This document shows, piece after piece, positions 6,686 through 59,465 of a stretch of DNA of 64,000 nucleotides (position 1 is the stretch's first letter; every line of letters begins with the position of its first letter). Both the position numbers and the translations under genes were made by a program. The DNA is from a virus (Duplodnaviria > Caudoviricetes), in the IMG/VR virus record IMGVR_UViG_3300028886_000059, positions 32,001-96,000 of that record, one strand, 5' to 3'. Under the pieces are notes generated by a model. The model saw nothing but the letters and a program-made list of their open reading frames with translations. It made no database searches and had not been told where the DNA came from.

Positions 6686-7768
6686 TTAACCCATCACGCT
6701 CTTGGGGTCGAGTGTGTAGATTTGGTCAACGTTGTGGACTACGGGAACGGCCATAGCCTGCGAAGAGGTGAACTCACGCAGCGGGTCGTTCTTGGAATAC
6801 TGGCTGCAAAGGATGTAGCCTTCGACGGTAGAGTAGGTGACACCAGCGACGGGATGAGACTGCTCGGCAGTGTTGGTATAGACCAAATCGCCGACGGTAT
6901 CATCACAGGTGAACACCATGCGACCCTCTGCCCAAGGCTTGTGGTTCTTCTTGATGCCATTCACCTCCGTCTTGATGGAACGGTTGATGCGGTGCAGCAC
7001 AACACCCCACTTACGCTGGAATACCTGCGACACTTGGTCGAAGTCGAGGTTGGGGATGTTGTTTCCGACGAAGTTCTGATTGAACGCAAACAGCTGCTTG
7101 AACTGTGTGTTCTTATACAGTGCGCGGAGCGCATAATCGTCGGTGAACACGTCGGTAATGGTGTTTTGGTCTTCCAGTGCCTTGTCGAACACCTGCTCGA
7201 TGTCATCAACGGCCAGTGCATCGGCATGGTCTGCCCATGCCTTAACCTTGGCAACGAACTGGTTAGCGTCAAGGTAGCCGACATTCACGCGAACACCTGT
7301 TCCAGCGTTGCGCGAACTCAGACCGACACCCGTAGAGAGCTCAGACAGGAACATGTCCTCGAGACGCTCGAAGATACCTTCGATACAACGACGCAGATTT
7401 ACGAAAATCTTTCCGATAATCTGCTGAATCGGCATCTGCTTGGCAATCATGTTCTCGATGTCCTTCATCTGCTTTTCAGTCAGATACAGCTTCATGCCCA
7501 GCTTGGGAATCTCACCGTGGGCGACCTCGATGGTGTCGAGGCTCTTCAACGGCAGTTCCGAATCCAGCGCAACAACGTCAGCGGCTACGCGGGTGTACTG
7601 TGCAAGCACAGAAGCCCACATGCCATCGGACGAATACTGCGGGGTGAGCATCGTCTTGTAGAGATACGGCAACGACTGTTGACGCTTCTCATTCAGCTTT
7701 TCCACGATGGAAAGAACCAGCAGCGGAAAATACTTCTCAGTGTATTGGAAATAAAGTGACTGTTGCAT
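6686..7768 (-). CDS. Major capsid protein (phage cap E-like)
   Basis: 360 aa, AADVVALDSELPLK and GEIPKLGMK motifs, synteny. Confidence 0.85.
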   Translation of the reverse strand: MQQSLYFQYTEKYFPLLVLSIVEKLNEKRQQSLPYLYKTMLTPQYSSDGMWASVLAQYTRVAADVVALDSELPLKSLDTIEVAHGEIPKLGMKLYLTEKQMKDIENMIAKQMPIQQIIGKIFVNLRRCIEGIFERLEDMFLSELSTGVGLSSRNAGTGVRVNVGYLDANQFVAKVKAWADHADALAVDDIEQVFDKALEDQNTITDVFTDDYALRALYKNTQFKQLFAFNQNFVGNNIPNLDFDQVSQVFQRKWGVVLHRINRSIKTEVNGIKKNHKPWAEGRMVFTCDDTVGDLVYTNTAEQSHPVAGVTYSTVEGYILCSQYSKNDPLREFTSSQAMAVPVVHNVDQIYTLDPKSVMG

Positions 7769-9728: not shown

Positions 9729-10388
9729 TTAGACAACACGCCTTGCCATTCGGCTGTGACTCAATCTCCTTGCCCTGTACCAGTCATCGAAGCTGGCGAA
9801 CTCATCCCGTTCCGTATCGTCATCGTCCAGCGTTTGCAGAAATGCCGTCTGCATGGGGCTGACTGTTCGGTAGCCGTAACTGTCGATGTGGTTCAGGTTG
9901 GAGTACAGTCTGCCATTGAATCTGATGAACTGGCCAAACGTCCTGACGTTCCCGTTCTCGTCCATCATGGCGAACTTTGAATAGCCGATTATCTTGTCAA
10001 TTACCCTCGTCACATACGATGACTTGAATCCGTACTTCTGTATGGCTGGGTAGATGATATTCTGAAATGCGGTCTCGCTGTCTGTCATATCCCCTTCGGG
10101 TCTGATGCTCAGAATGCCGTTGTGGGCAAACCAAATGTTTCCGCGATTGAAGGGATGGCAGTTGGCCTTGCACTTGCTGCCGTGCGTTGCCAGTCTGAAA
10201 TGTATGATACACGCCTCCTCCTTCGGTACTTTGTGTATGTACTTCAAGAAGGTCTCAAAGTTCATGCCCTTATAGTGATGGCTCTTGCTGACGAATCCGC
10301 ATCCGTGCGGGTTTCTGCGATGGGCGTTTCTTAACTCGGTATCTGTTGGTAACTGCTGGCCTGCGGCCTTTATGATGATAACACACAT
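9729..10388 (-). CDS. Class II (Ntn) glutamine amidotransferase
   Basis: N-terminal MC, NPHGCG, HFRLATHG, NCHPF, AHNG and TDSE motifs. Confidence 0.9.
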   Translation of the reverse strand: MCVIIIKAAGQQLPTDTELRNAHRRNPHGCGFVSKSHHYKGMNFETFLKYIHKVPKEEACIIHFRLATHGSKCKANCHPFNRGNIWFAHNGILSIRPEGDMTDSETAFQNIIYPAIQKYGFKSSYVTRVIDKIIGYSKFAMMDENGNVRTFGQFIRFNGRLYSNLNHIDSYGYRTVSPMQTAFLQTLDDDDTERDEFASFDDWYRARRLSHSRMARRVV

Positions 10389-20120: not shown

Positions 20121-21562
20121 TGTTCAGTCGGTTCATTAGGTTCTGCTGGCTTCGCAAGTTCTGCCTTCCTCTGTGCGTCTGCCACTATCTTCTCAATCTC
20201 CTGCTGCGGTGCATCGGTGATGGCCAGCATCGTAACGGCGGTTTCCAACGATACGAGGCCACGCTGGTACAATGCACCGATGGCAGTCCACTGCGTTTGC
20301 TTATCCTCTGCAAACGGCTCTGCATATTCGCCCTTAATCCTTAATGCGTCGATTTCCGTCGCCATTTCGGGATGCAGCAGCTTCAGCAGCGCAAGTTTCA
20401 GGTTCTTGTCACGGTCAAGCAGCACGTCGTATGTTTCTTTCAGGTTGTCGCGCTTCATGTAGCCAAGCGTCAACGCCCTGCGCAAAGCCTCGCCGCTGAG
20501 TGTTCCAAGCCCCTTCATCTTCTCAAACGAGAAATCAGGCGTGAAGGAGTCATTCAGGATGGAATCATGCAGGTTGTCATGCTCATCCCTGCGCGATGCG
20601 CTGTCTGACGGCGGGTTGACATAGCCGAAACGTGATTTTTCGCCAGTAAGCTGAATCATCCTTCCGACGGTCTCTCCATTCTTGAGGTATTGCAAAACGT
20701 CTGCTGTTGCCTCTGCCAGCGGGTCGGCAAAATAGTTGTTGTTGTCGGCATGTTTGGAATCGTTCATTTCCTCACGGGTGATTCTGCGCTCCGTGCCATC
20801 CCATGACTTATCCTGATTGAAGTAAATCACTGGAATCTTGCCGAGGATGTTGTCATACACAGTGACCTGCCATCCCACGGCAGAACGCTGGCACTGGAAA
20901 TAGTAGTCGGAAGTCCAAATGTCATAGTGCTGCACATGGTTTCCATTTTCCTTCAAGGTATATCCCAGCGCAAAGGCCACCATGTTCTCATACTGGTCAA
21001 TCAGCGGATGCAGCCTGTAGCCCTTTGAATACGCGGCCACGAAATTATGGTATTTCAGCACACCGTTCTCTTGGTACAGCTGATAGACAAGTGCCGATTC
21101 CAGTTCCGAGCCTGCCAGTCGCTTGCACTGCCTCCACTTGGCATGAAAGCGCGTGTCATCCAGCATGTCCTTATACAGCTGGAATGCCCTGTCAGTACCC
21201 TCCTTCTTCTGCCACTTCGGGGGTTTGGCCAGCAGGAAGAAGAGTTCCACCTCATTGATGTACCTCTGACGGGTTCGCGGCAGCTTCTCCGTCTGATAAG
21301 GCTCTTGCCCTTCCCTCCACTTGTTCGGGCGGTTCATTACATCGTGCGTCTGCCAGTTGTATTCACGAATGGCATTCGTCACAGCTAATTCGTGGTCTTG
21401 CATCAGGCTGATAGCATGAGCCACATCGTTCTCAAGAATGTAGGCGTACAGTTCGCGCAATACGCCTGCACTGTTAAGTGTGACACCCCTAAACTGCGTC
21501 AACACCTGTAACTGATAATCGTCCAATATTGGCATAGTTCTTTCCGTTTTATTTGATTGCAA
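20117..21562 (-). CDS. Portal protein (SPP1 gp6-like)
   Basis: 481 aa, GKIPVIYF and LSGEALRR motifs, follows the terminase. Confidence 0.9.
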   Translation of the reverse strand: MQSNKTERTMPILDDYQLQVLTQFRGVTLNSAGVLRELYAYILENDVAHAISLMQDHELAVTNAIREYNWQTHDVMNRPNKWREGQEPYQTEKLPRTRQRYINEVELFFLLAKPPKWQKKEGTDRAFQLYKDMLDDTRFHAKWRQCKRLAGSELESALVYQLYQENGVLKYHNFVAAYSKGYRLHPLIDQYENMVAFALGYTLKENGNHVQHYDIWTSDYYFQCQRSAVGWQVTVYDNILGKIPVIYFNQDKSWDGTERRITREEMNDSKHADNNNYFADPLAEATADVLQYLKNGETVGRMIQLTGEKSRFGYVNPPSDSASRRDEHDNLHDSILNDSFTPDFSFEKMKGLGTLSGEALRRALTLGYMKRDNLKETYDVLLDRDKNLKLALLKLLHPEMATEIDALRIKGEYAEPFAEDKQTQWTAIGALYQRGLVSLETAVTMLAITDAPQQEIEKIVADAQRKAELAKPAEPNEPTEQ

Positions 21563-22904
21563 TCTTACTATTCTTCTTTGTCACCTTTAGATTCTTCACT
21601 ATCTTACCCAGCAGCTTGCCGAGCGTGTAGTAGCGGGCAGCGTCGATGGCGTGATTCCACTTGTCAACGGGAACGTTGATATAGTTTCCATCCTTATCCT
21701 TATCCCAAACGTAGTTGCGCAATTCCTCTTGCAGGTCGATGGAATCTTCCGTAACGAAGATGTCATCATAACTCTGCATCTTGTCAATGCCAGCCACTAT
21801 TGAGCCATTCGGCTTCTGAACTGGATATATCATTATTCCACCAAGGGCGATTTCGTCGATGAGTCGCGGGTCTGCGCTATCGGCGAACACCATCAATCCA
21901 CTATACGGCTTCAAGAACTCGATGATGTCCTTTGACAGCATTCCAGTCCTGTAGCACAGCAGTTTTATATAAAGCCTGTTATCCCATATTCCGCACATCA
22001 CAATGGCCGTTGGGTCATGTGTGTAACCGAAGTCTATTCCGAGCGCAACATGCTTGCACTGCGTCGGGAACTCCTTCACGATACCCCATTTCTTGAACAC
22101 AGCACCTTCCGCAACATCAGCCCATTGGCCGATGACGATGTGCGCATACCTTTCAGGGTCATTGCGCTTCATGGTTTCCACGTTCTCAAGGAACTGCGGG
22201 GATAGGTTCTCTATGTTGTCAAGGTATGTCGTATGGATATGAAGCACGTCGGGATGCGTCGAAATCTGCACTGGCACACCGTCGAAGTATTCAATCCTGT
22301 GCGTGTCCTTTATGTATTTCTGATAGATGAAGTGTCCGCTGTCCGTCGGGTTCATCACGATGATGATGAGGTTCTGAATGCCCAAGGTACGGATGGAAAG
22401 CATGATTTTCTCGAAGTCATCAAACGAAGTCCACTCTTCCGCTTCATCACAGACAAACACCGTCAGGCCGTGGATTGATTTCAGCTTTGCCGTCTGATTG
22501 CCCGATGAGGTCTTGATGCCTCGGAACATGATATGTGAGCCAGTCTGCTTGTTGATGACATCCTTCTTTGTGGCACGGAAATACTTCTGCGTACCCTCCA
22601 TCTCTATCTTCTCCAAAAATTCGGGGATGACAGAAATATCGGCTGATACCATCGTATAGCGGGCGCAAAGAATCTGATGTGCAAGCAATTTCGCATCATC
22701 GCGGGGGCTCGGCACGGCTTCAAAGGTCAGGCGTTCCAAGAAGGTTTCGACATTGAAAGACTTACCGCTTCCACGGCCTCCAGTGACAAGCACAATCATC
22801 TTTCTGCCGTTGTTCAGATAGAGAGGATGGTAAACAGGCTGCACCTTGATACCCTTGCGCACCTGCCCTCGTAAAACCTTCCGTCTATCTGCTACCCTTG
22901 TCAT
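21549..22904 (-). CDS. terL: Terminase large subunit (PBSX family)
   Basis: Walker A GGRGSGKS, Walker B VCDEAEE, GIDFGY, NHAIDAARY. Confidence 0.95.
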   Translation of the reverse strand: MTRVADRRKVLRGQVRKGIKVQPVYHPLYLNNGRKMIVLVTGGRGSGKSFNVETFLERLTFEAVPSPRDDAKLLAHQILCARYTMVSADISVIPEFLEKIEMEGTQKYFRATKKDVINKQTGSHIMFRGIKTSSGNQTAKLKSIHGLTVFVCDEAEEWTSFDDFEKIMLSIRTLGIQNLIIIVMNPTDSGHFIYQKYIKDTHRIEYFDGVPVQISTHPDVLHIHTTYLDNIENLSPQFLENVETMKRNDPERYAHIVIGQWADVAEGAVFKKWGIVKEFPTQCKHVALGIDFGYTHDPTAIVMCGIWDNRLYIKLLCYRTGMLSKDIIEFLKPYSGLMVFADSADPRLIDEIALGGIMIYPVQKPNGSIVAGIDKMQSYDDIFVTEDSIDLQEELRNYVWDKDKDGNYINVPVDKWNHAIDAARYYTLGKLLGKIVKNLKVTKKNSKIAIK

Positions 22905-23632
22905 TCTTCGCTTTCAGTCGTTATGTCATTTTCTACATTCTTCCAGTCATCCGTCATTTCCGCATCTATCCAGTGAGATACAGGTATGCCCTGCTTGACG
23001 TTCTGCGGCAATTCTTCATCATCCTCGATTCCGCGCTGGATTTTCCTCCAGTTCGGGTCATGGTGAAACAGAAACGTCGATAGTGCCTGAATGTTCGGTG
23101 CAAGTTCCGATTCCGTCTCTTGAACTACGGCCTTATCCGTCAGTACAACGATGCCAGTACCACCACAATCGGGGCATTTAGGGTCGTTTCCGTTACAGAT
23201 ACAACGCGCCTGCACATACCTTGTTGTAACCGACTTAATCTTCCTTCCACCGATGGCCGCACGGTAGTATGCAGCCCTTGCAACACCGATGGCCTTTTCC
23301 CGCGCACGGGCTAAGACGTGTGCGATGTGAGCGGAGCGCACGGCGTTTTCTGATGCTGTCCACCTGTTGTAGTTTCCGTTTTTCATGTGGCTGAACACCT
23401 CGCGTGAAATGTCGAGTTGTGCCGCAATCTCGGTGTCGGTCATCCCCTGTCCTGCAAGCTGGTCAATCTTCTTGAAAAAGATACCTTCGGGGTCATCGTA
23501 GTCGTATTTGGCTTTGGAGTCGGGAACCTTGACGAGCGGCGCAGATGTCTTGCGTCGCTTTGTAGCGGCCTTTTTCACCGTTTTCTTTTTCGGCTTGGCT
23601 GCTGCTTCGGTCTTTTTCTTCCTTTCTGCCAT
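22901..23632 (-). CDS. terS: Terminase small subunit (with Zn-ribbon insertion)
   Basis: G.TDTEIAAQL HTH, LAPNIQAL..L...PNWR, directly upstream of terL. Confidence 0.75.
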   Translation of the reverse strand: MAERKKKTEAAAKPKKKTVKKAATKRRKTSAPLVKVPDSKAKYDYDDPEGIFFKKIDQLAGQGMTDTEIAAQLDISREVFSHMKNGNYNRWTASENAVRSAHIAHVLARAREKAIGVARAAYYRAAIGGRKIKSVTTRYVQARCICNGNDPKCPDCGGTGIVVLTDKAVVQETESELAPNIQALSTFLFHHDPNWRKIQRGIEDDEELPQNVKQGIPVSHWIDAEMTDDWKNVENDITTESEE

Positions 23633-23638
23633 GATGCT

Positions 23639-24481
23639 TTACTCCAGTATGTCAATTTTATCCATGAGTTCGCGCCCGTCCACGAATTTGCTATTGGGGT
23701 CGAATCCCAGCTGAATGAGTGCGCCCTGTGTCTCTTGGGGGTTGGGGAACGATACGATGAAATACGACAACATGCCGCCGTCGTTGTTGGTGTCGGACTT
23801 CTTGTTTATGCGGTCTTTGATTTTCTGCACTTCGTTGTGACGCGCAATCTGATTCTCGGCACTGTCGGCCATGAAATCTACGCTGCGGTCAAGTTTCGTG
23901 TTCTCCTCGCTTCCGTGGGTGTTCGCATCAACCTGTGCAAGATGCTCGCTATCCTGTGTCAGATTACCCTTTCGCCAGTCGTTAGCGGGGTCTGTCTCTT
24001 CGGGTATGTCGGTGATGTTCCGAAATTCCTCATCGTCAATGGGTGTTATACCCAGCATGTCGAGGTCGAAGTCGTTGAAGCCTGCGGCCTTGTGGTCTAT
24101 CTTTGCCAGCACGTCACGTAACAGGTCATCGTCGAAGTCGCCCTGTACGGCCTTGTTGTTCAAGAACATGTTCTGTTCCATCTCCTCCTTTTCTGACAGA
24201 TGAACCACCTCCACGCGGATTTCATAGTCGTTTTCATGCGTTTCAGAATTGTATTTGTTCACCTCGTCGATGATTGACACCTTCTGATGACCGCCAACAA
24301 GATTTCCGCTTTCCTCATTCCACACGATACCGCCCATAAGCCCCAGCCGCTTCAAGTTGGCCTTTAGCTGCTTTCGGGCTTCTTCCGAAATCTTGCGGGG
24401 ATTGTATGATGCAAAGTTTATCTGACTTCTCAGGATTACCCTGCATTCAGCTTGTGCGATTTTACTTTTCTTCACTGCCAT
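23639..24481 (-). CDS. ParB/Srx-like N-terminal domain protein
   Basis: YNPRKI...IVWN...NLVGGHQK motif. Confidence 0.85.
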   Translation of the reverse strand: MAVKKSKIAQAECRVILRSQINFASYNPRKISEEARKQLKANLKRLGLMGGIVWNEESGNLVGGHQKVSIIDEVNKYNSETHENDYEIRVEVVHLSEKEEMEQNMFLNNKAVQGDFDDDLLRDVLAKIDHKAAGFNDFDLDMLGITPIDDEEFRNITDIPEETDPANDWRKGNLTQDSEHLAQVDANTHGSEENTKLDRSVDFMADSAENQIARHNEVQKIKDRINKKSDTNNDGGMLSYFIVSFPNPQETQGALIQLGFDPNSKFVDGRELMDKIDILE

Positions 24482-24484
24482 AAC

Positions 24485-25261
24485 TTACTCCTCCTCCAGT
24501 TCTATGTCATCCGACTGCAAGTTTTCGGGCATTTCCGTCTTGGTGGTTATGCCGTGCTCGTAGTCGAAAATCAGTTTTTCGCAATATGGGAACTCCTGCA
24601 AGCACCTTTGATAGTCACGCGGGTAGTTCTTTCTAAGAAACAGCAGATGGTCGAGGTCTATAGCCAAACCCTGCGACACATTGCCCTTCACGTATTCCAG
24701 CGGCCTAATCAGAGACTTCGCCTTGATGTACTGCAACACCTCGCCGTTAGTCCACACGGCCAGCGGGTAAACCATGCCCTTCTTGGTCATGTATGTACCG
24801 TTCTGCTTCTTGAACATCAGCAGACGCATACGCTTCATGTAGCCATCCACGCCCTTCATGCCGCTAAAGGCATAGGGTACGCCAGTTTCCTGCCTTACCT
24901 GTTCCTCGATTTCGCCGATGGAGCGCATACGCAGGTGGTTCGGGTCTTTCTTCGGCAGCAGATAGCGGGGGTCGGGGTCGCAGAAGAATCCTCCTGCCTT
25001 GAATGCGTCATGCTGAAAATGCAGGATTTTCCGTACTTCGACATTCTTGTAATGCTTCTCAGCCCAATCAATGTAAGGCTGCACATGGTCGCAGTTGTTC
25101 ACAAGGTACATGTAATAGCAGATGACCTTCGGGAATGTCGTTGCCAGCATCTCCAGCAGGGCGATGCCGTCTTTGCCACCAGCCGAATAGAATAGTACGG
25201 CAGTGTCGGTCTTTTCGCGGATGCCCTTGATGATGGCCATTGTCTCTGAATACTTGCTCAT
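24485..25261 (-). CDS. PAPS-reductase-like PP-loop protein
   Basis: VLFYSAGGKDG PP-loop, GMK..DG..KR, YPLAVWT. Confidence 0.85.
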   Translation of the reverse strand: MSKYSETMAIIKGIREKTDTAVLFYSAGGKDGIALLEMLATTFPKVICYYMYLVNNCDHVQPYIDWAEKHYKNVEVRKILHFQHDAFKAGGFFCDPDPRYLLPKKDPNHLRMRSIGEIEEQVRQETGVPYAFSGMKGVDGYMKRMRLLMFKKQNGTYMTKKGMVYPLAVWTNGEVLQYIKAKSLIRPLEYVKGNVSQGLAIDLDHLLFLRKNYPRDYQRCLQEFPYCEKLIFDYEHGITTKTEMPENLQSDDIELEEE

Positions 25262-25282
25262 AGTTCCGTTTATGTAATTTTT

Positions 25283-25951
25283 TTAGTTTGAGCCGCCCAA
25301 AGCTGTACGCAAGGCAGCTGCTATCGTATTTCCGCTACCTCGGCGCAATACCCTTTCGCGGTCACTCATCATCCTATCCCAATCATCGTATGTCTTAACC
25401 CTGTCAAGGTTGATTTCCCTGCTTGGGCTATAGCTTCGCATCATTGCCGACAATCCTTTTGGAAGGGTCATGGCAACGACGGGGAGGCGTGTGCGGCCAT
25501 CCCAATCAGACGGTGCTAAATCGTCATCCCATTCTACTTTTCCGATGGCTTTAGCACCATATTTCGCATACATATTCTGTAATCCACCACCATAGCAATC
25601 CAGCTTTCGGCCACCCCTTGCAGAAGCGAATGCCATGATGTTGGGCATCCTTCCGCGTGTCCTGCTGAATACGGCCTCCACATTGCCGTCGCTTGTTATG
25701 GCGAGTCCTGTCTTGTGGTCTTTAGAAAGGTAATAAGCCGTGCCACTGTTACGGTTATTCCTGAACTGTTTCTTTGTATGGGTGTCAACCATCCAGCCGT
25801 GCCTGTTTTTCTTCTTGGCATAGTTGATGGCATTCTTGAAAGCCTTTGGCGTTGCACGTTCAAATTCTACATGAGAATGACGAATACCCTTTCTTGTCAG
25901 GGCATTCTCGACGCGCTTGTTTGCTTTTTCAATATCGCTTATGTACCTGAC
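25283..25951 (-). CDS. GNAT-like protein of the polyvalent-protein type, proposed GTC start
   Basis: Frame open 53 codons upstream of ATG 25792, back to GTC at 25951 directly after an in-frame TGA; GGRKLDCY...MYAKYG...W...AP.DW motif. Confidence 0.65.
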   Translation of the reverse strand, partial: VRYISDIEKANKRVENALTRKGIRHSHVEFERATPKAFKNAINYAKKKNRHGWMVDTHTKKQFRNNRNSGTAYYLSKDHKTGLAITSDGNVEAVFSRTRGRMPNIMAFASARGGRKLDCYGGGLQNMYAKYGAKAIGKVEWDDDLAPSDWDGRTRLPVVAMTLPKGLSAMMRSYSPSREINLDRVKTYDDWDRMMSDRERVLRRGSGNTIAAALRTALGGSN

Positions 25952-25964
25952 TCAGCCGTTCCGT

Positions 25965-26162
25965 TTACATTGTCAAAATATCAGCCATCAATTCAGGGCT
26001 GCTATAATCCATGTCACTATCCAGCGAATCATCGCTGGGGCTGTCTGCCAGTTTTCTTGCCTCATCCTCTGTCAGGTAAGGCTTTCCATTCTCCTTGATT
26101 TTGCAGAGCTCCTCAAAAAGACGCTGGCGATATTCAGCAATCTGTTCTTTCGTATGCTTCAT
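25965..26162 (-). CDS. Small acidic hypothetical protein
   Basis: 65 aa with its own promoter at 26182-26213. Confidence 0.55.
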   Translation of the reverse strand: MKHTKEQIAEYRQRLFEELCKIKENGKPYLTEDEARKLADSPSDDSLDSDMDYSSPELMADILTM

Positions 26163-26181
26163 TGTTGTTCAATTAATAGTG

Positions 26182-26213
26182 CAAAGATAAAGCAAATAAA
26201 TTGATTTACCAAA
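26182..26213 (-). promoter_or_regulatory. Early-type promoter with TAAAGCAAATAA box
   Basis: TTTG-N20-TATCTTTG. Confidence 0.7.
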
Positions 26214-26329
26214 TATTTTTCGTTATTTTTTGTTGCATATTACTTTATTTAACTCTTCCGCTAAATCAGAATGGCCACCACCATCATTTTGCTGACGGCG
26301 ATGGCCATGAGGTCGGCTCAAGGCAACCT

Positions 26330-26584
26330 TTAGCCCTCAGAGCCTGCGGCAGCACGAAGGGCGGCGGAGCGCAAGGCTGCACCACGAACACCACGCGCCC
26401 GCATAGCGGCTACGTTCTGACGTGCTTGTCGGGCGAATGCCACACGAAGGTCTTGACGACGCTGTTCACGGTTTCCCCAACCTGCACGGCCAGCCGCATA
26501 ACGGCCACCATTTGCCAGTCGGCGACTACCTGCACCGTTCACGTTTGACGTGATACCAGTGATTCGATTGATTCTGTTTCTGAC
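26330..26584 (-). CDS. Small Arg/Ala/Gly-rich basic protein, proposed GTC start
   Basis: Frame opens at GTC 26584 directly after an in-frame TGA: VRNRINRITGITSNVNGAGSRR...AALRAAAGSEG (84 aa). Confidence 0.65.
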   Translation of the reverse strand, partial: VRNRINRITGITSNVNGAGSRRLANGGRYAAGRAGWGNREQRRQDLRVAFARQARQNVAAMRARGVRGAALRSAALRAAAGSEG

Positions 26585-26617
26585 TCAGCATTCAAATTAA
26601 AGGGTTCGACATTATTG

Positions 26618-27028
26618 TTAGTTGTCTGAATGGGCATCCTGTTCCTCGTCGAAGATTTCACAGTTCTCTTTCTGCATGACTTCGCCGAGTTCATACTGCA
26701 TTTGCGTAACATAGTAGGTCTCGCCGTTATCCACGAAGGTAAGCGGCTCGCCAGTCTTTTCGTCATCCATCTGAACGACCTTAATCCCAACGACCTGCAC
26801 CAGCAGACGGGGGGCATTCTTCTGACGGCCATTGATAAGCTGCAAGGCATCGTAGCCCACAACCTCGACATCGCTTGTGCCGTCGCCGTTGTCCTTTTCC
26901 ACCAAATACTGCTTGGCGTTACGCGGGTAAACAAAGCGGTGCTCGACCTTTTGCTCACCCTTCAAGATTTTCTTGAAACTGTCGCGCTTGATTTGTAGCG
27001 TCAGTACATCTAATCCTTCTAAATTCAT
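26618..27028 (-). CDS. ASCH (PUA-like) domain protein
   Basis: LTLQIK...F..IL.G.QK.EHR motif. Confidence 0.8.
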   Translation of the reverse strand: MNLEGLDVLTLQIKRDSFKKILKGEQKVEHRFVYPRNAKQYLVEKDNGDGTSDVEVVGYDALQLINGRQKNAPRLLVQVVGIKVVQMDDEKTGEPLTFVDNGETYYVTQMQYELGEVMQKENCEIFDEEQDAHSDN

Positions 27029-27061
27029 TTCAATTCCGATTTAATTGTTACTATAATTTTG

Positions 27062-27134
27062 TTGCGGGAGCAGGGCTCGAACCTGCGACCTCCAGTAAGT
27101 CAAACTGTTAAGCTACCAACTGCTCCATCCCGCG
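27062..27134 (-). tRNA. Initiator-type (fMet-like body) tRNA with anticodon GAC
   Basis: CGCGGGA-TG-GAGC-AGTTGGTA-GCTT-A-ACAGT-TTGACTT-ACTGG-AGGTC-GCAGG-TTCGAGC-CCTGC-TCCCGCA-A; C1xA72 mismatch, A11-U24, A73. Confidence 0.85.
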
Positions 27135-27142
27135 ATTTTCGG

Positions 27143-27214
27143 CAAAGTTACACATATTACTATTGTCATGTGAATCTATACCTACATTATGTTTCACCAA
27201 TTTATATTAGTGAA
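27143..27214 (-). promoter_or_regulatory. Putative late promoter directly upstream of the GAC tRNA
   Basis: -7 TAACTTTG at 27143-27150; TTTCACCA-N9-AGTGAA at 27192-27214. Confidence 0.7.
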
Positions 27215-27293
27215 AGAATCGCGGTGTTTTGCAGCTATTTCACTTCCATCTATTCAATCATTTTGCTTTATATTTCACCCAGCGGGCGCATTT

Positions 27294-27406
27294 ATATTCG
27301 CCTTTCTTTATCCTGTCGGCATCAGGTCTAAACGGTTTTGTCTTTGCAAAGGTACAAAATAATATTGAAACTACCAAACTTTTTTGCAGAAAAATAAAGC
27401 AAATAA
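27294..27406 (-). promoter_or_regulatory. Early-type promoter and leader followed by only a 7-codon ORF
   Basis: TTTG-N20-TACCTTTG, TAAAGCAAATAA box, degenerate leader motif. Confidence 0.6.
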
Positions 27407-27413
27407 ATTTATT

Positions 27414-28346
27414 TTACCATTCCGCAAAGATGTTATGACTGGCATTCACGACTTGCACGGAGTACTGAACACGGCCATCCACCTTGTTTCTGATGCTGTC
27501 TTTCCAGTATATCCTCGACTTCGGGGCTTTCGCTGCCACAATCTCCTGCACGTCATTGACGAACTTCACTATGCCGTCAAGCGTGATTGGCTTCTTGTTG
27601 TGCTTCTTGCCGCTTTCCAGCCCTATCTTATAGACATCGCAGAATCCCAATGTGGCCTTTATCATCTCCAGCGAATCATCCAAGTCTATCACAGGCTCGA
27701 TGCTGGCAAAGGTATGAACGCCGTATTCTTTGACCTTCGCCATCGCTTCCACACGCTGCATGTTCGTTGACGCATTCGGCTCAAGGTCATCCCTGCCTGT
27801 CAGCGTGAAACCGACGCACAGGTTCTTACCGCCATTGACCAGCAGACGATGCCCACCGATTCCGTACACCCACTCCGAGCGTTTCGTCAGCATGGTAACT
27901 GGCACTGGAGGCAAATCGTTTCTTCTGCTTCCATCCTCGTTACACCCCAATGCGATATAGGCACACCGCATGAATGTATAGAAGGTATCGACTGGCTGCT
28001 GTAGGCACGGGTCGCTGCTGAACGTAAAGAAGATGCCACGGCCATCTGCCATGATTCTTCCCCTGTACTTATCCAGTTCCTTCTCAAATACCTGCACGGC
28101 CTTGTTACATCCTACGATGAATGCGAGTTTTCTTGAAGCGTCGCAGTCATTCTTGAACTTGACATCCTTTGCCGTCAGCTGAAACTCCTTTTTCAGTTGC
28201 GGGATTTTCTGACCCATTCCGTGACCTAACACGCCTTTCTTGCAGTAGCAATACTCACAGTCGTTTGAACACCCGACAAAGATATTTGCCGCCCAAGGAG
28301 CGTATTCGCGGGCTTTTCCCGCTGGCTGATACACAATTTTTCCCAT
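27414..28346 (-). CDS. Radical SAM protein
   Basis: CSNDCEYCYC (CxxxCxxC), SSDP, LTK, ASIEPVI. Confidence 0.85.
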   Translation of the reverse strand: MGKIVYQPAGKAREYAPWAANIFVGCSNDCEYCYCKKGVLGHGMGQKIPQLKKEFQLTAKDVKFKNDCDASRKLAFIVGCNKAVQVFEKELDKYRGRIMADGRGIFFTFSSDPCLQQPVDTFYTFMRCAYIALGCNEDGSRRNDLPPVPVTMLTKRSEWVYGIGGHRLLVNGGKNLCVGFTLTGRDDLEPNASTNMQRVEAMAKVKEYGVHTFASIEPVIDLDDSLEMIKATLGFCDVYKIGLESGKKHNKKPITLDGIVKFVNDVQEIVAAKAPKSRIYWKDSIRNKVDGRVQYSVQVVNASHNIFAEW

Positions 28347-28347
28347 A

Positions 28348-28587
28348 TTACCAAAACTTAGATAAATCCTTCTTGAATACTACATACTTCCCATCAGTCC
28401 GCGCCCTGCACTTGCCAATCTGCGCACGCACAGAATCGACATCGCAATGCTTCTGCTTCCTGACTACCCTTCCATGAAAGTAACATCCACGGCAGAACGA
28501 TTCAGCCTCCTGAACTTTCAGATGAACACCGTCGCAGGTGAACACGTCATTAATCGGTCTTTCCATATCACTTCGTTTTTTCGTCAT
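28348..28587 (-). CDS. Cys-rich small protein (paralog of 46125)
   Basis: MER.I..V...LKV.E...C.GC.F...C...R.D...VVF. Confidence 0.55.
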   Translation of the reverse strand: MTKKRSDMERPINDVFTCDGVHLKVQEAESFCRGCYFHGRVVRKQKHCDVDSVRAQIGKCRARTDGKYVVFKKDLSKFW

Positions 28588-29511
28588 AGGGCTTGCCGCA
28601 GAACGGGCAGAACTTCACCTTGTCATCCAAACCGATATAGCGATGGTGCTTTGAATAGTTCCCGCTTTTAGTCATTGGCTTGAACCATCCAGTAACATAT
28701 ATCCGACCATCAGGCGATACGTTTTCCACGCCTCCCAAACCGTACTTCTTACAAAGTTCAGCCTTAATCTTCACTACACAGTCACACATAGTCTATTATT
28801 TCTTAAATGGATTCTGAAACACTAACTTTGTCTTTTTTATAAAATCCCTTCCAGCAGTTCCCTTCGGTGCTGTTTCTTCATACCAAACGACTCTCCGCAA
28901 TAGAAGAGACTTTGAATTGATATGCAACCAGCACCGATGTTCCTTTGATGGGCTACAACATTCAAAGTCACAACAACATTCATCACGCCAAGGGTTATGT
29001 ATGGCGATGCCAAACACTTGCAAGAAAGACTGAATACGCGCAGAAAAAGCAATGTTTTTCCGAAAAGCAGTCTTCCAGTAATATTTTCTGTAATACCAAA
29101 ATTTTTTCATACAACTATTTCTTACGTCTGTTGGCATAGATTTTCATGGCCGTCTTTTTGTTCCGTGCCATGATTCTCTCGCCGTGGATTATAAACTCAT
29201 GCTCCTGCATGTTCACACCATACATCTGATGATTCCGTGCCTTTTCCTCTTCGGTAAGTTCACGGCCTCCAGTGCCTCTATATCTTCTACGTGTGCCAGT
29301 ATCATAGATAGACCTATCGCCAGCACCCGCAACAGCTGCCATCATCAGCGTAGCGGCCATCAATTTGCTAATCTTACTCATTTCGGTTCCTCCTCTGCCT
29401 TTTCAGGTCGCCATTCGTTGAAGAATCCGCATTCACGGGCGGCATTGTCATGGTTGCCAAATCCCGTCTTATGCAAATCCAGTTCCTTGAACTCGGCCAT
29501 CTTTCTTACAT

Positions 29512-46875: not shown

Positions 46876-47016
46876 TCGAGGGAGCAGGGCTCGAACCTGC
46901 GACACACACAATCCATGTGTAACTTCATGTATGCGAGGCTGCTATTCTTGCGCTCGTATTTACAGCCATCCTCCCGTTCCATATACGGGTGTGCTAACCA
47001 ACTACACCATCCCTCT
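46876..47016 (-). ncRNA. tRNA-like RNA with a 72-nt variable region (anticodon position ATG)
   Basis: Complete acceptor, D, anticodon and T arms; insert spans 46901-46972. Confidence 0.7.
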
Positions 47017-59086: not shown

Positions 59087-59102
59087 CTTCTTTTCCTTTT
59101 AG

Positions 59103-59173
59103 TTGGAGAAACGGGAGTCGAACCCATACAAACAGACCCAAATTCTGTTGTGCTACCATTACACCATTCTCCA
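59103..59173 (-). tRNA. tRNA-Gln (TTG)
   Basis: TGGAGAA/TTCTCCA acceptor, ACAGA-ATTTGGG-TCTGT anticodon arm, TTCGACT T-loop. Confidence 0.85.
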
Positions 59174-59393
59174 GTATGACGGCCTTTTGAGCCGCCCACC
59201 TTGAACACCGCCATGTCGTCACCGTCAACAGCCGCAGGATTTAAGCGGCCATCCACCCACATGTTACCCTTTCCGATTTTTTGGGGATTGCGCAGATACT
59301 CTCACATGCTTTAGGCTCGCTTTCGGTATAGGTCGCGCCCCTTAACGCTTCCAAATGTACTCGCTTGTGGTGCGTGTTCTGATACAAGACTTG

Positions 59394-59465
59394 TAGCCAC
59401 AGGCAGAATCGAACTGCCCTTCCAAGGTTGAAAACCTTGTGTCCTAACCGATAGACGATGCGGCC
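59394..59465 (-). tRNA. tRNA-Glu (TTC)
   Basis: GGCCGCA/TGTGGCT acceptor, CAAGG-TTTTCAA-CCTTG anticodon arm, TTCGATT T-loop. Confidence 0.9.

Follow-up and report, generated by a model that had tools for sequence, protein, structure and literature searches.

In all the bacterial systems that we know of, cellular as well as viral, translation begins with a single initiator tRNA, which reads AUG-like codons and brings in methionine or formylmethionine. A search of the literature returned engineered departures from this situation only, with no natural precedent. The amber initiator, with anticodon CUA, is one of the engineered anticodon mutants of the E. coli initiator tRNA, and another, with anticodon GAC, is said to have been made to initiate at GUC by Chattapadhyay, Pelka and Schulman in 1990. 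A third, with anticodon AAC, initiates only at GUU, with valine and formylvaline, and is fully orthogonal (bioRxiv 10.64898/2025.12.21.695813). We describe here a locus of a gut phage that probably makes natural use of the same device. It was found in a window of 64,000 nucleotides (this is the whole stretch that was analysed, positions 32001-96000 of an IMG/VR virus record of 116,414 bp with an estimated completeness of 98%), and it comprises a tRNA of the initiator type with anticodon GAC, located at 27062-27134 on the minus strand, and two genes of the same strand, ORF1 and ORF2 (for open reading frame), that have no AUG where their frames open.

The engineered mutants are the closest parallel. 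They associate an initiator body with a valine anticodon, and the same two anticodons, AAC and GAC, are those met here in nature. They start only at the complementary codon, with valine or formylvaline, and they are orthogonal to the AUG channel of the host. They differ from the phage tRNA in that the latter is natural, is conserved together with its putative target genes, has U37 and U38 matched by a fixed messenger context, and keeps fewer G-C pairs in its anticodon stem. Bacterial initiator methionine tRNAs (tRNAfMet), among them those with CAU that phages carry (L014, L010 and L008; related contigs and genomes are named by L and G numbers), share with it the acceptor stem CGCGGGA/UCCCGCA, with C1xA72, G2-C71 and C3-G70, as well as A11-U24, A73 and nearly identical D and T arms. 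Of the three G-C pairs that are a mark of initiators, some of the phage CAU tRNAs, such as that of L014, likewise keep no more than one or two. The difference lies in the loop, where tRNAfMet has CAU, for methionine, followed by A37 A38, and where the present family has GAC or AAC, predicted to specify valine, followed by U37 U38.

Two further systems deserve comparison. The crAss-like and Lak phages recode stop codons by means of phage suppressor tRNAs. There too a phage tRNA alters the reading of particular, often late, genes in Bacteroidales hosts, but it changes the meaning of a stop during elongation, whereas the GAC tRNA would change the start codon and leave elongation untouched. In T-box leaders the anticodon of a tRNA, possibly with its neighbours, pairs with a fixed site of the messenger; here, by contrast, no T-box structure is present, the site coincides with the codon that opens the reading frame, and the hosts are Bacteroidales, not Firmicutes.

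The tRNA and its relatives

The first-pass annotation of this DNA had drawn attention to initiator determinants in a tRNA with anticodon GAC, and ARAGORN, Rfam and a reading of the sequence all bear this out. ARAGORN reports tRNA-Val(gac) at 27061-27134(-), and the Rfam tRNA family matches 27062-27134 with 49.2 bits, for a gathering score of 29; no CCA is encoded. The acceptor stem CGCGGGA/UCCCGCA begins with the mismatch C1xA72, followed by G2-C71 and C3-G70, and A11-U24, G45 and A73 are present. It has the D and T arms of the initiator tRNAs found in phages and hosts. The anticodon stem (A27xG43, C28-G42, A29-U41, G30-C40, U31-A39) closes the loop UUGACUU, that is U32 U33 G34 A35 C36 U37 U38, with pyrimidines at 37 and 38. 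A35, C36 and A73 are identity elements of valyl-tRNA synthetase (ValRS). These three residues are what an elongator tRNA-Val would display; its other marks, namely a paired 1:72, a pyrimidine 11-purine 24 pair and a purine at position 37, are all absent.

Fifteen distinct relatives of this tRNA were drawn from viral and metagenome contigs, and a later scan of genome contigs added further copies. In the alignment of the fifteen, 94% of the cells are paired in the cloverleaf count, both sides have changed in nine stem pairs, and for four of five cloverleaf measures the observed value was reached by none of 500 shuffles. Position 1:72 is unpaired throughout (15/15), with letters that differ from one tRNA to another (C.A, C.U, C.C, G.A, U.C); G2-C71 is found in 15/15 and C3-G70 in 14/15, the last one having U.G. 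No variation is seen in the pair A11-U24 (15/15) or in residues A35, C36, U37, U38 and A73. The GAC tRNAs of close relatives, where they can be read, carry a compensatory C27-G43 pair. Outside the clade, all the other IMG/VR phage tRNAs of the same shape have anticodon CAU. This pattern of conservation argues that the molecule is a working tRNA, under selection for its initiator features, and not a decayed copy; it derives from the tRNAfMet family, of which it is not a canonical member, with GAC in place of CAU.

Eight nucleotides upstream of tRNA position 1 lies TAACTTTG (27143-27150, minus strand), a Bacteroidota-type -7 box (TAnnTTTG), identical in L003 and L005. Boxes that resemble it, TAATTTAG and TAACTTTA, precede the tRNAs of a sister clade with anticodon AAC, and the box would presumably act as a promoter.

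Frames that open on GUC or GUU

ORF1 (26330-26584, minus strand), with 84 codons for a small basic protein rich in arginine and alanine, and ORF2 (25283-25951, minus strand), with 222 codons for a protein with a predicted GNAT fold, both open on GTC. The GTC codons, at 26584-26582 and 25951-25949, immediately follow an in-frame TGA and sit in two copies of the same 10-mer, GCTGAGTCAG (26580-26589 and 25947-25956, minus strand), as had been remarked from the window alone. We can add that GCTGAGTCAG occurs exactly twice in the 116,414 bp, both strands being counted, when about 0.2 occurrences would be expected, and that both copies stand at the opening of a frame, on the coding strand. Relatives where ORF2 has only 50-84% protein identity still have the motif at both genes. 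A third GAGTCA that opens a frame, at window position 9760, was set aside as lying inside another gene, and ORF1 and ORF2 are the only credible GUC-start genes of this genome.

In ORF2 the first canonical start is ATG 25792, at codon 54, and the 53 codons that precede it have no ATG, GTG or TTG. The suggestion that this skipped part looks like real protein holds well. It aligns with the N-terminal part of homologues, several of which have an ATG start at a position nearly equivalent to that of the GTC, the lengths being 218-231 amino acids for the GTY forms and 228-232 for the ATG forms, and the insertions or deletions that separate relatives in this 5' region are of +3 and -12 nt. The AlphaFold model has a predicted local distance difference test score (pLDDT) of 84, with 92-97 for residues 11-40, and shows a confident helix and strand in this part. 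No Pfam family matches ORF2. A Foldseek search of PDB with the model gave only GNATs as top matches, nearly all with probability 0.95-1.0, but with weak scores otherwise (E about 1e-3, template modelling score 0.35-0.44); the modelled fold is GNAT-like. In many other phages (L034-L066) the same domain is found as the C-terminal domain of very large proteins, 280-1330 codons lying upstream of it, a placement that would fit a domain borne by the virion or ejected from it.

The first canonical start of ORF1 is GTG 26542, at codon 15, and the sister clade conserves, at the protein level, the 14 residues upstream of it. Over its first 45 nt (26540-26584) ORF1 differs by a single base from L007:508-552, while the neighbouring ORF2 proteins are about 50% identical; this near-identity suggests a constraint at the RNA level on top of coding. 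Automatic gene calls truncate both proteins, as had been anticipated: P0001 is a call of 169 amino acids from ATG 25792, and P0016 one of 70 amino acids from GTG 26542.

Other ways into the two frames were considered. Readthrough or frameshifting into ORF2 from the upstream ATG gene for 65 amino acids (25965-26162, minus strand), which has its own promoter-like box and ends with TAA 14 nt before the second start motif, in another frame, was rejected: the GTC frame is shut by TGA 25975 and TGA 25954, and the upstream frame ends at 25965. Among the alternative starts listed in the first-pass annotation, GTG 26542 turns out to be conserved. ATA 25942 and ATT 25933 are not, the former being AGA in L005 and both lacking a counterpart in L007. 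A start at ATG 26591 followed by a shift into the ORF1 frame was also rejected, for no canonical start in the ORF2 frame precedes the GTC, and the sites of the AAC clade have no ATG just upstream.

If the tRNA reads these codons, its anticodon should change with them, and this is what the relatives display. Where ORF2 is 84% or 50% identical, GAGTCAG is present at both genes, with anticodon GAC where the tRNA is readable. In the sister clade, made of phages of about 97-105 kb whose ORF2 is 41% identical, the same tRNA has the loop UUAACUU, hence anticodon AAC, and the homologues of ORF1 and ORF2 open on GAGTTAA or GAGTTAG. The AUG-less frames of homologous loci thus begin with GTC or GTT. Wherever the anticodon is readable and the sites were recorded, GAGTCA starts accompany the loop YUGACUU (G000, the record of the window, G005/L003, L005/L127, L130 and G004), and GAGTTA starts the loop UUAACUU (G001, G003, L119, L118 and L132, with sites in L134 and L135). 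The start codon fits the anticodon of its own tRNA at 25 of the 25 tabulated sites, many of which were located by a search for GAGTYA, and the covariation is seen at three gene families.

The third family is that of the major head protein. In the AAC clade this protein (phrog_29; L100:1446-2531 in G001) opens TGA-GTT-AAA-CAG-TCA, with the first canonical start 20 codons inside the conserved frame, and in the alignment this GTT, residue 1, stands opposite the ATG of the orthologues of G000 (6686-7768, minus strand, start at 7768 of the window) and G004, which are 58-61% identical. G004, a 129-kb phage with a GAC tRNA, extends the picture in another direction: it has a tandem of six small genes for arginine-rich basic proteins (66-123 codons), and a seventh nearby, all opening on GAGTCAR (L104, that is G004:40001-60000; G004 49413-46703 and 42689-42360, minus strand). 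Two of them, of 109 and 113 codons, reach their first canonical start at codons 86 and 92, respectively, and in three of the seven AGGAGG precedes the GTC by 7-8 nt. The same family in the AAC phage L119 opens on AGCAGAGTTAGA; two further small basic genes, in a prophage-like region of Lepagella muris (L132), open on GAGTTAG and GAGTTAA, and the divergent AAC tRNA of L118 lies near GCTGAGTTAGAAG. The small proteins of G004 end in ...SNG or ...SG, and the tails of ORF1 (...AAGSEG) and ORF2 (...LGGSN) in the window resemble them; a C-terminal signal may be common to the genes that start with GUY, and could serve in capsid targeting.

ORF2 homologues that start with ATG (L076, L079) have no tRNA within 6 kb. 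Another homologue, at L081:5884-6001 and in L131, has no canonical start and an in-frame GTC within AAGTCGA, a sequence that a UUGACUU loop could likewise pair with; the 15.8 kb examined of the 18-kb contig of L081 yielded no tRNA, and the large terminase carries an intein.

A control independent of orthology scored every 6-mer for its placement at frame openings deprived of a nearby canonical start. The cognate 6-mer was so placed in 4/16, 4/14, 6/41 and 3/22 of its occurrences (15-29% in three genomes and 14% in that of the window), against about 1% for all 6-mers, and the non-cognate one in 0/27, 1/25, 3/53 and 1/19, which is background. Raw genome-wide counts of the motif show no enrichment, which is thus a matter of placement at frame openings only.

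The complementarity goes beyond the codon. GAGUCAG can pair with the whole anticodon loop of 7 nt, G with U38, A with U37, GUC with GAC, A with U33 and the last G with U32 or C32, and the A residues at -1 and +4 are invariant at the tabulated sites. Starting from the invariant U37 and U38 of the tRNA and from these two A residues, we may speculate that extra pairs form between loop and messenger on the ribosome. Extending the pairing to -3 with position 39 had to be given up, as it is inconsistent across sites.

Readings of the locus

We consider it likely that the phage produces a derivative of the initiator tRNA which, with its GAC anticodon, starts translation at GUC, while its AAC counterpart in the sister clade does so at GUU. 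The reading is grounded in the observed anatomy and conservation of the tRNA, in the AUG-less frames with their coding 5' parts, and in the covariation of codon and anticodon. Genes that open on the codon complementary to the altered anticodon, with no usable AUG, GUG or UUG, are found repeatedly: ORF2, the head protein of the AAC clade, and the small genes of G004 and L119. The proposal of natural initiation at GUC, first made from the window, has thus gained the support of comparative evidence.

The remaining steps, which we infer, namely charging, formylation, use of the P site, extended pairing and a regulatory purpose, could be arranged as follows. The tRNA would be transcribed from its own promoter and receive its CCA from the host; the host ValRS would load it with valine through A35, C36 and A73. 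The initiator acceptor end (mismatched 1:72, G2-C71, C3-G70) would, with A11-U24, allow formylation, and because these features have been retained the charged tRNA would be brought by IF2 to the P site of the 30S subunit, instead of being brought by EF-Tu to the A site. No formyltransferase or peptide deformylase was found in the phage, so that the host enzymes would serve for both reactions. The tRNA would then pair with the GUC at 26584 (ORF1) and at 25951 (ORF2), making proteins that begin with valine or formylvaline, in a fixed GAGUCAR context where U37 would face A at -1, U33 the A at +4, and position 32 the purine at +5. This extended pairing may compensate for the G-C pairs that the anticodon stem lacks. 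The outcome would be a small set of phage genes closed to the host initiator and dependent on the tRNA of the phage. The tRNA heads the cluster, with its own promoter-like box, and the purpose of the arrangement could be to keep the GUC-start genes silent until the phage tRNA is made.

Several facts weigh against such a reading. The caveat that only one of the three consecutive initiator G-C pairs (29-41, 30-40, 31-39) is kept, G30-C40, was correct; U37 is very unusual, and G20, a minor element for the E. coli ValRS, is missing, replaced by U20 and, in the AAC clade, by A20. At the tabulated sites the residue at -2 is always G and never A, though pairing with U38 would not demand G, and the conservation of the flanks is there partly by construction, through the GAGTYA search. 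The switch between GAC and AAC may represent just one or two evolutionary events. In G004, an in-frame ATG follows the GTC of the ORF2 homologue at a distance of 4 codons. Finally, the canonical start at codon 15 of ORF1 is kept in all relatives, those of the GAC clade having GTG there and those of the AAC clade ATG.

This last point leads to a mixed situation, which we hold to be rather unlikely while giving it more weight than any other alternative, where ORF2 uses GUC and ORF1 is started mainly, or also, from GTG 26542 by the host initiator, the 42 nt upstream being a leader with a tRNA-binding motif or the beginning of a minor long isoform. Besides the maintenance of a canonical start in both clades, the near-identity of the 45 nt that follow the GTC in the window and in L007, despite diverged neighbouring genes, is in keeping with it. 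Yet the 14 residues concerned are conserved between the clades as protein, with synonymous and conservative changes (VRNRINR... versus VKRRIDN...). Furthermore, an ORF1 homologue from a Logan contig, P0017, reads the same segment from an ATG placed 4 codons upstream, a tryptophan replacing the in-frame TGA (MDCW-VRNRINR...), so that translation goes through the motif. To this must be added that the paralogues of G004 and L119 run for 65-92 codons before a canonical start appears.

One could also think of the tRNA as a trans-acting RNA, its loop pairing with GAGUYAR in a kissing or T-box-like regulation while the host tRNAfMet starts at near-cognate codons. A complementarity of 7 nt does exceed what a codon needs, and the decoding of a triplet would not call for invariant residues at -2, -1 and +4, but GTY is in frame with the gene at every site, and it aligns with the ATG of the head-protein orthologues and with the N-termini of the ORF2 homologues that start with ATG, while no other near-cognate codon is conserved. 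Apart from the tRNA itself, no Rfam family, T-box or other, appears in 24000-29000 at E<=1, and the strict mismatch at 1:72, like A11-U24, would be left without a role: we regard this explanation as very improbable. Still less credence can be given to the idea of an elongator tRNA-Val, as the ARAGORN label would have it, used for codon supply or for escape from anticodon nucleases (altered anticodon loops of phage tRNAs reportedly evade those of the host), next to an unrelated regulatory or DNA motif and to frames that would be annotation quirks, since the unpaired 1:72 (15/15), the invariant A11-U24 and the pyrimidine at 37 are all atypical of elongators, and both the covariation at three gene families and an enrichment limited to the cognate 6-mer at frame openings would be hard to account for.

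Genomic surroundings and meaning for the phages

Most genes of the window are on the minus strand, and Bacteroidota-type promoter-like boxes (TAnnTTTG) are seen in its sequence. Directly after the tRNA comes an ASCH-like gene with an ATG start (26618-27028, minus strand; phrog_625), which is right behind the tRNA in the five relatives that were checked (L024, L025, L093, L118 and L119, of GAC and AAC types). Pfam ASCH matches the L118 homologue with 22.3 bits, for a cut-off of 21.2, and that of L024 with 18.1; the window copy gives no match above threshold. Downstream of ORF2 one finds a PAPS-reductase-like (PP-loop) gene (24485-25261), a ParB-like gene (23639-24481) and the small and large terminase subunits (21549-23632), all on the minus strand. 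A megablast of 24000-29000 against GenBank phages found no match.

The only other tRNAs of the 116-kb genome are the ordinary-looking tRNA-Gln(UUG), at 59102-59173, and tRNA-Glu(UUC), at 59393-59465 (minus strand), to which a tRNA-like gene at 46876-47016 (minus strand) has to be added. The latter matches the Rfam tRNA family with 40.1 bits, has a 68-nt insertion at the position of the variable loop, and is found by ARAGORN only with the intron option. It shows the mismatch A1.G72, A73, a loop AUAUGGA (anticodon AUG, with A34) and a T arm that is that of the GAC tRNA over 24 nt. It has no blastn match in G001, G003 or G004, and a set of CAU-start genes that might go with it was sought, and none was found. 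Elsewhere, two other initiator-like tRNAs with U37 U38 were noticed (L121:8028-8100; L116 / L023:3894-3966), one with A1xC72 and the loop CUCCUUU (anticodon CCU), the other with C1xA72 and the loop GUCAUUU (anticodon CAU).

Related tRNAs are present in genome contigs of Muribaculaceae and of metagenome-assembled genomes ascribed to "Porphyromonadaceae" and Bacteroides, from which it follows that the hosts are Bacteroidales. TRNAs of the AAC type, with GUU-start genes, occur in contigs of two cultured organisms, Lepagella muris NM04_E33 (L132) and Paramuribaculum intestinale DSM 100749 (L134), and in the 302-kb contig of the former the element is probably a prophage. Were these elements inducible prophages, work at the bench would be feasible.

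Taking the widest view, it is possible, though we propose it with less assurance than initiation at GUC itself, that Bacteroidales phages have evolved a natural orthogonal channel of initiation, in which an initiator tRNA charged with valine reads with its whole loop the 7-nt signal GAGUYAR, signal and loop co-evolving, and gates late or virion genes (those for the small basic proteins, for the GNAT-like protein and, in one clade, for the major head protein). If the reading is true, this would be the first private start codon in nature, GUC or GUU being read with valine by an initiator that the virus itself encodes. It would account for phage genes that seem to be truncated or to lack a start, such as P0001, P0016 and the head protein of the AAC clade. 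For synthetic biology, it would provide orthogonal initiators already evolved to be compatible with their hosts and endowed with a preferred messenger context. For the phages themselves, it would be a new route to time the expression of their genes or to insulate it.

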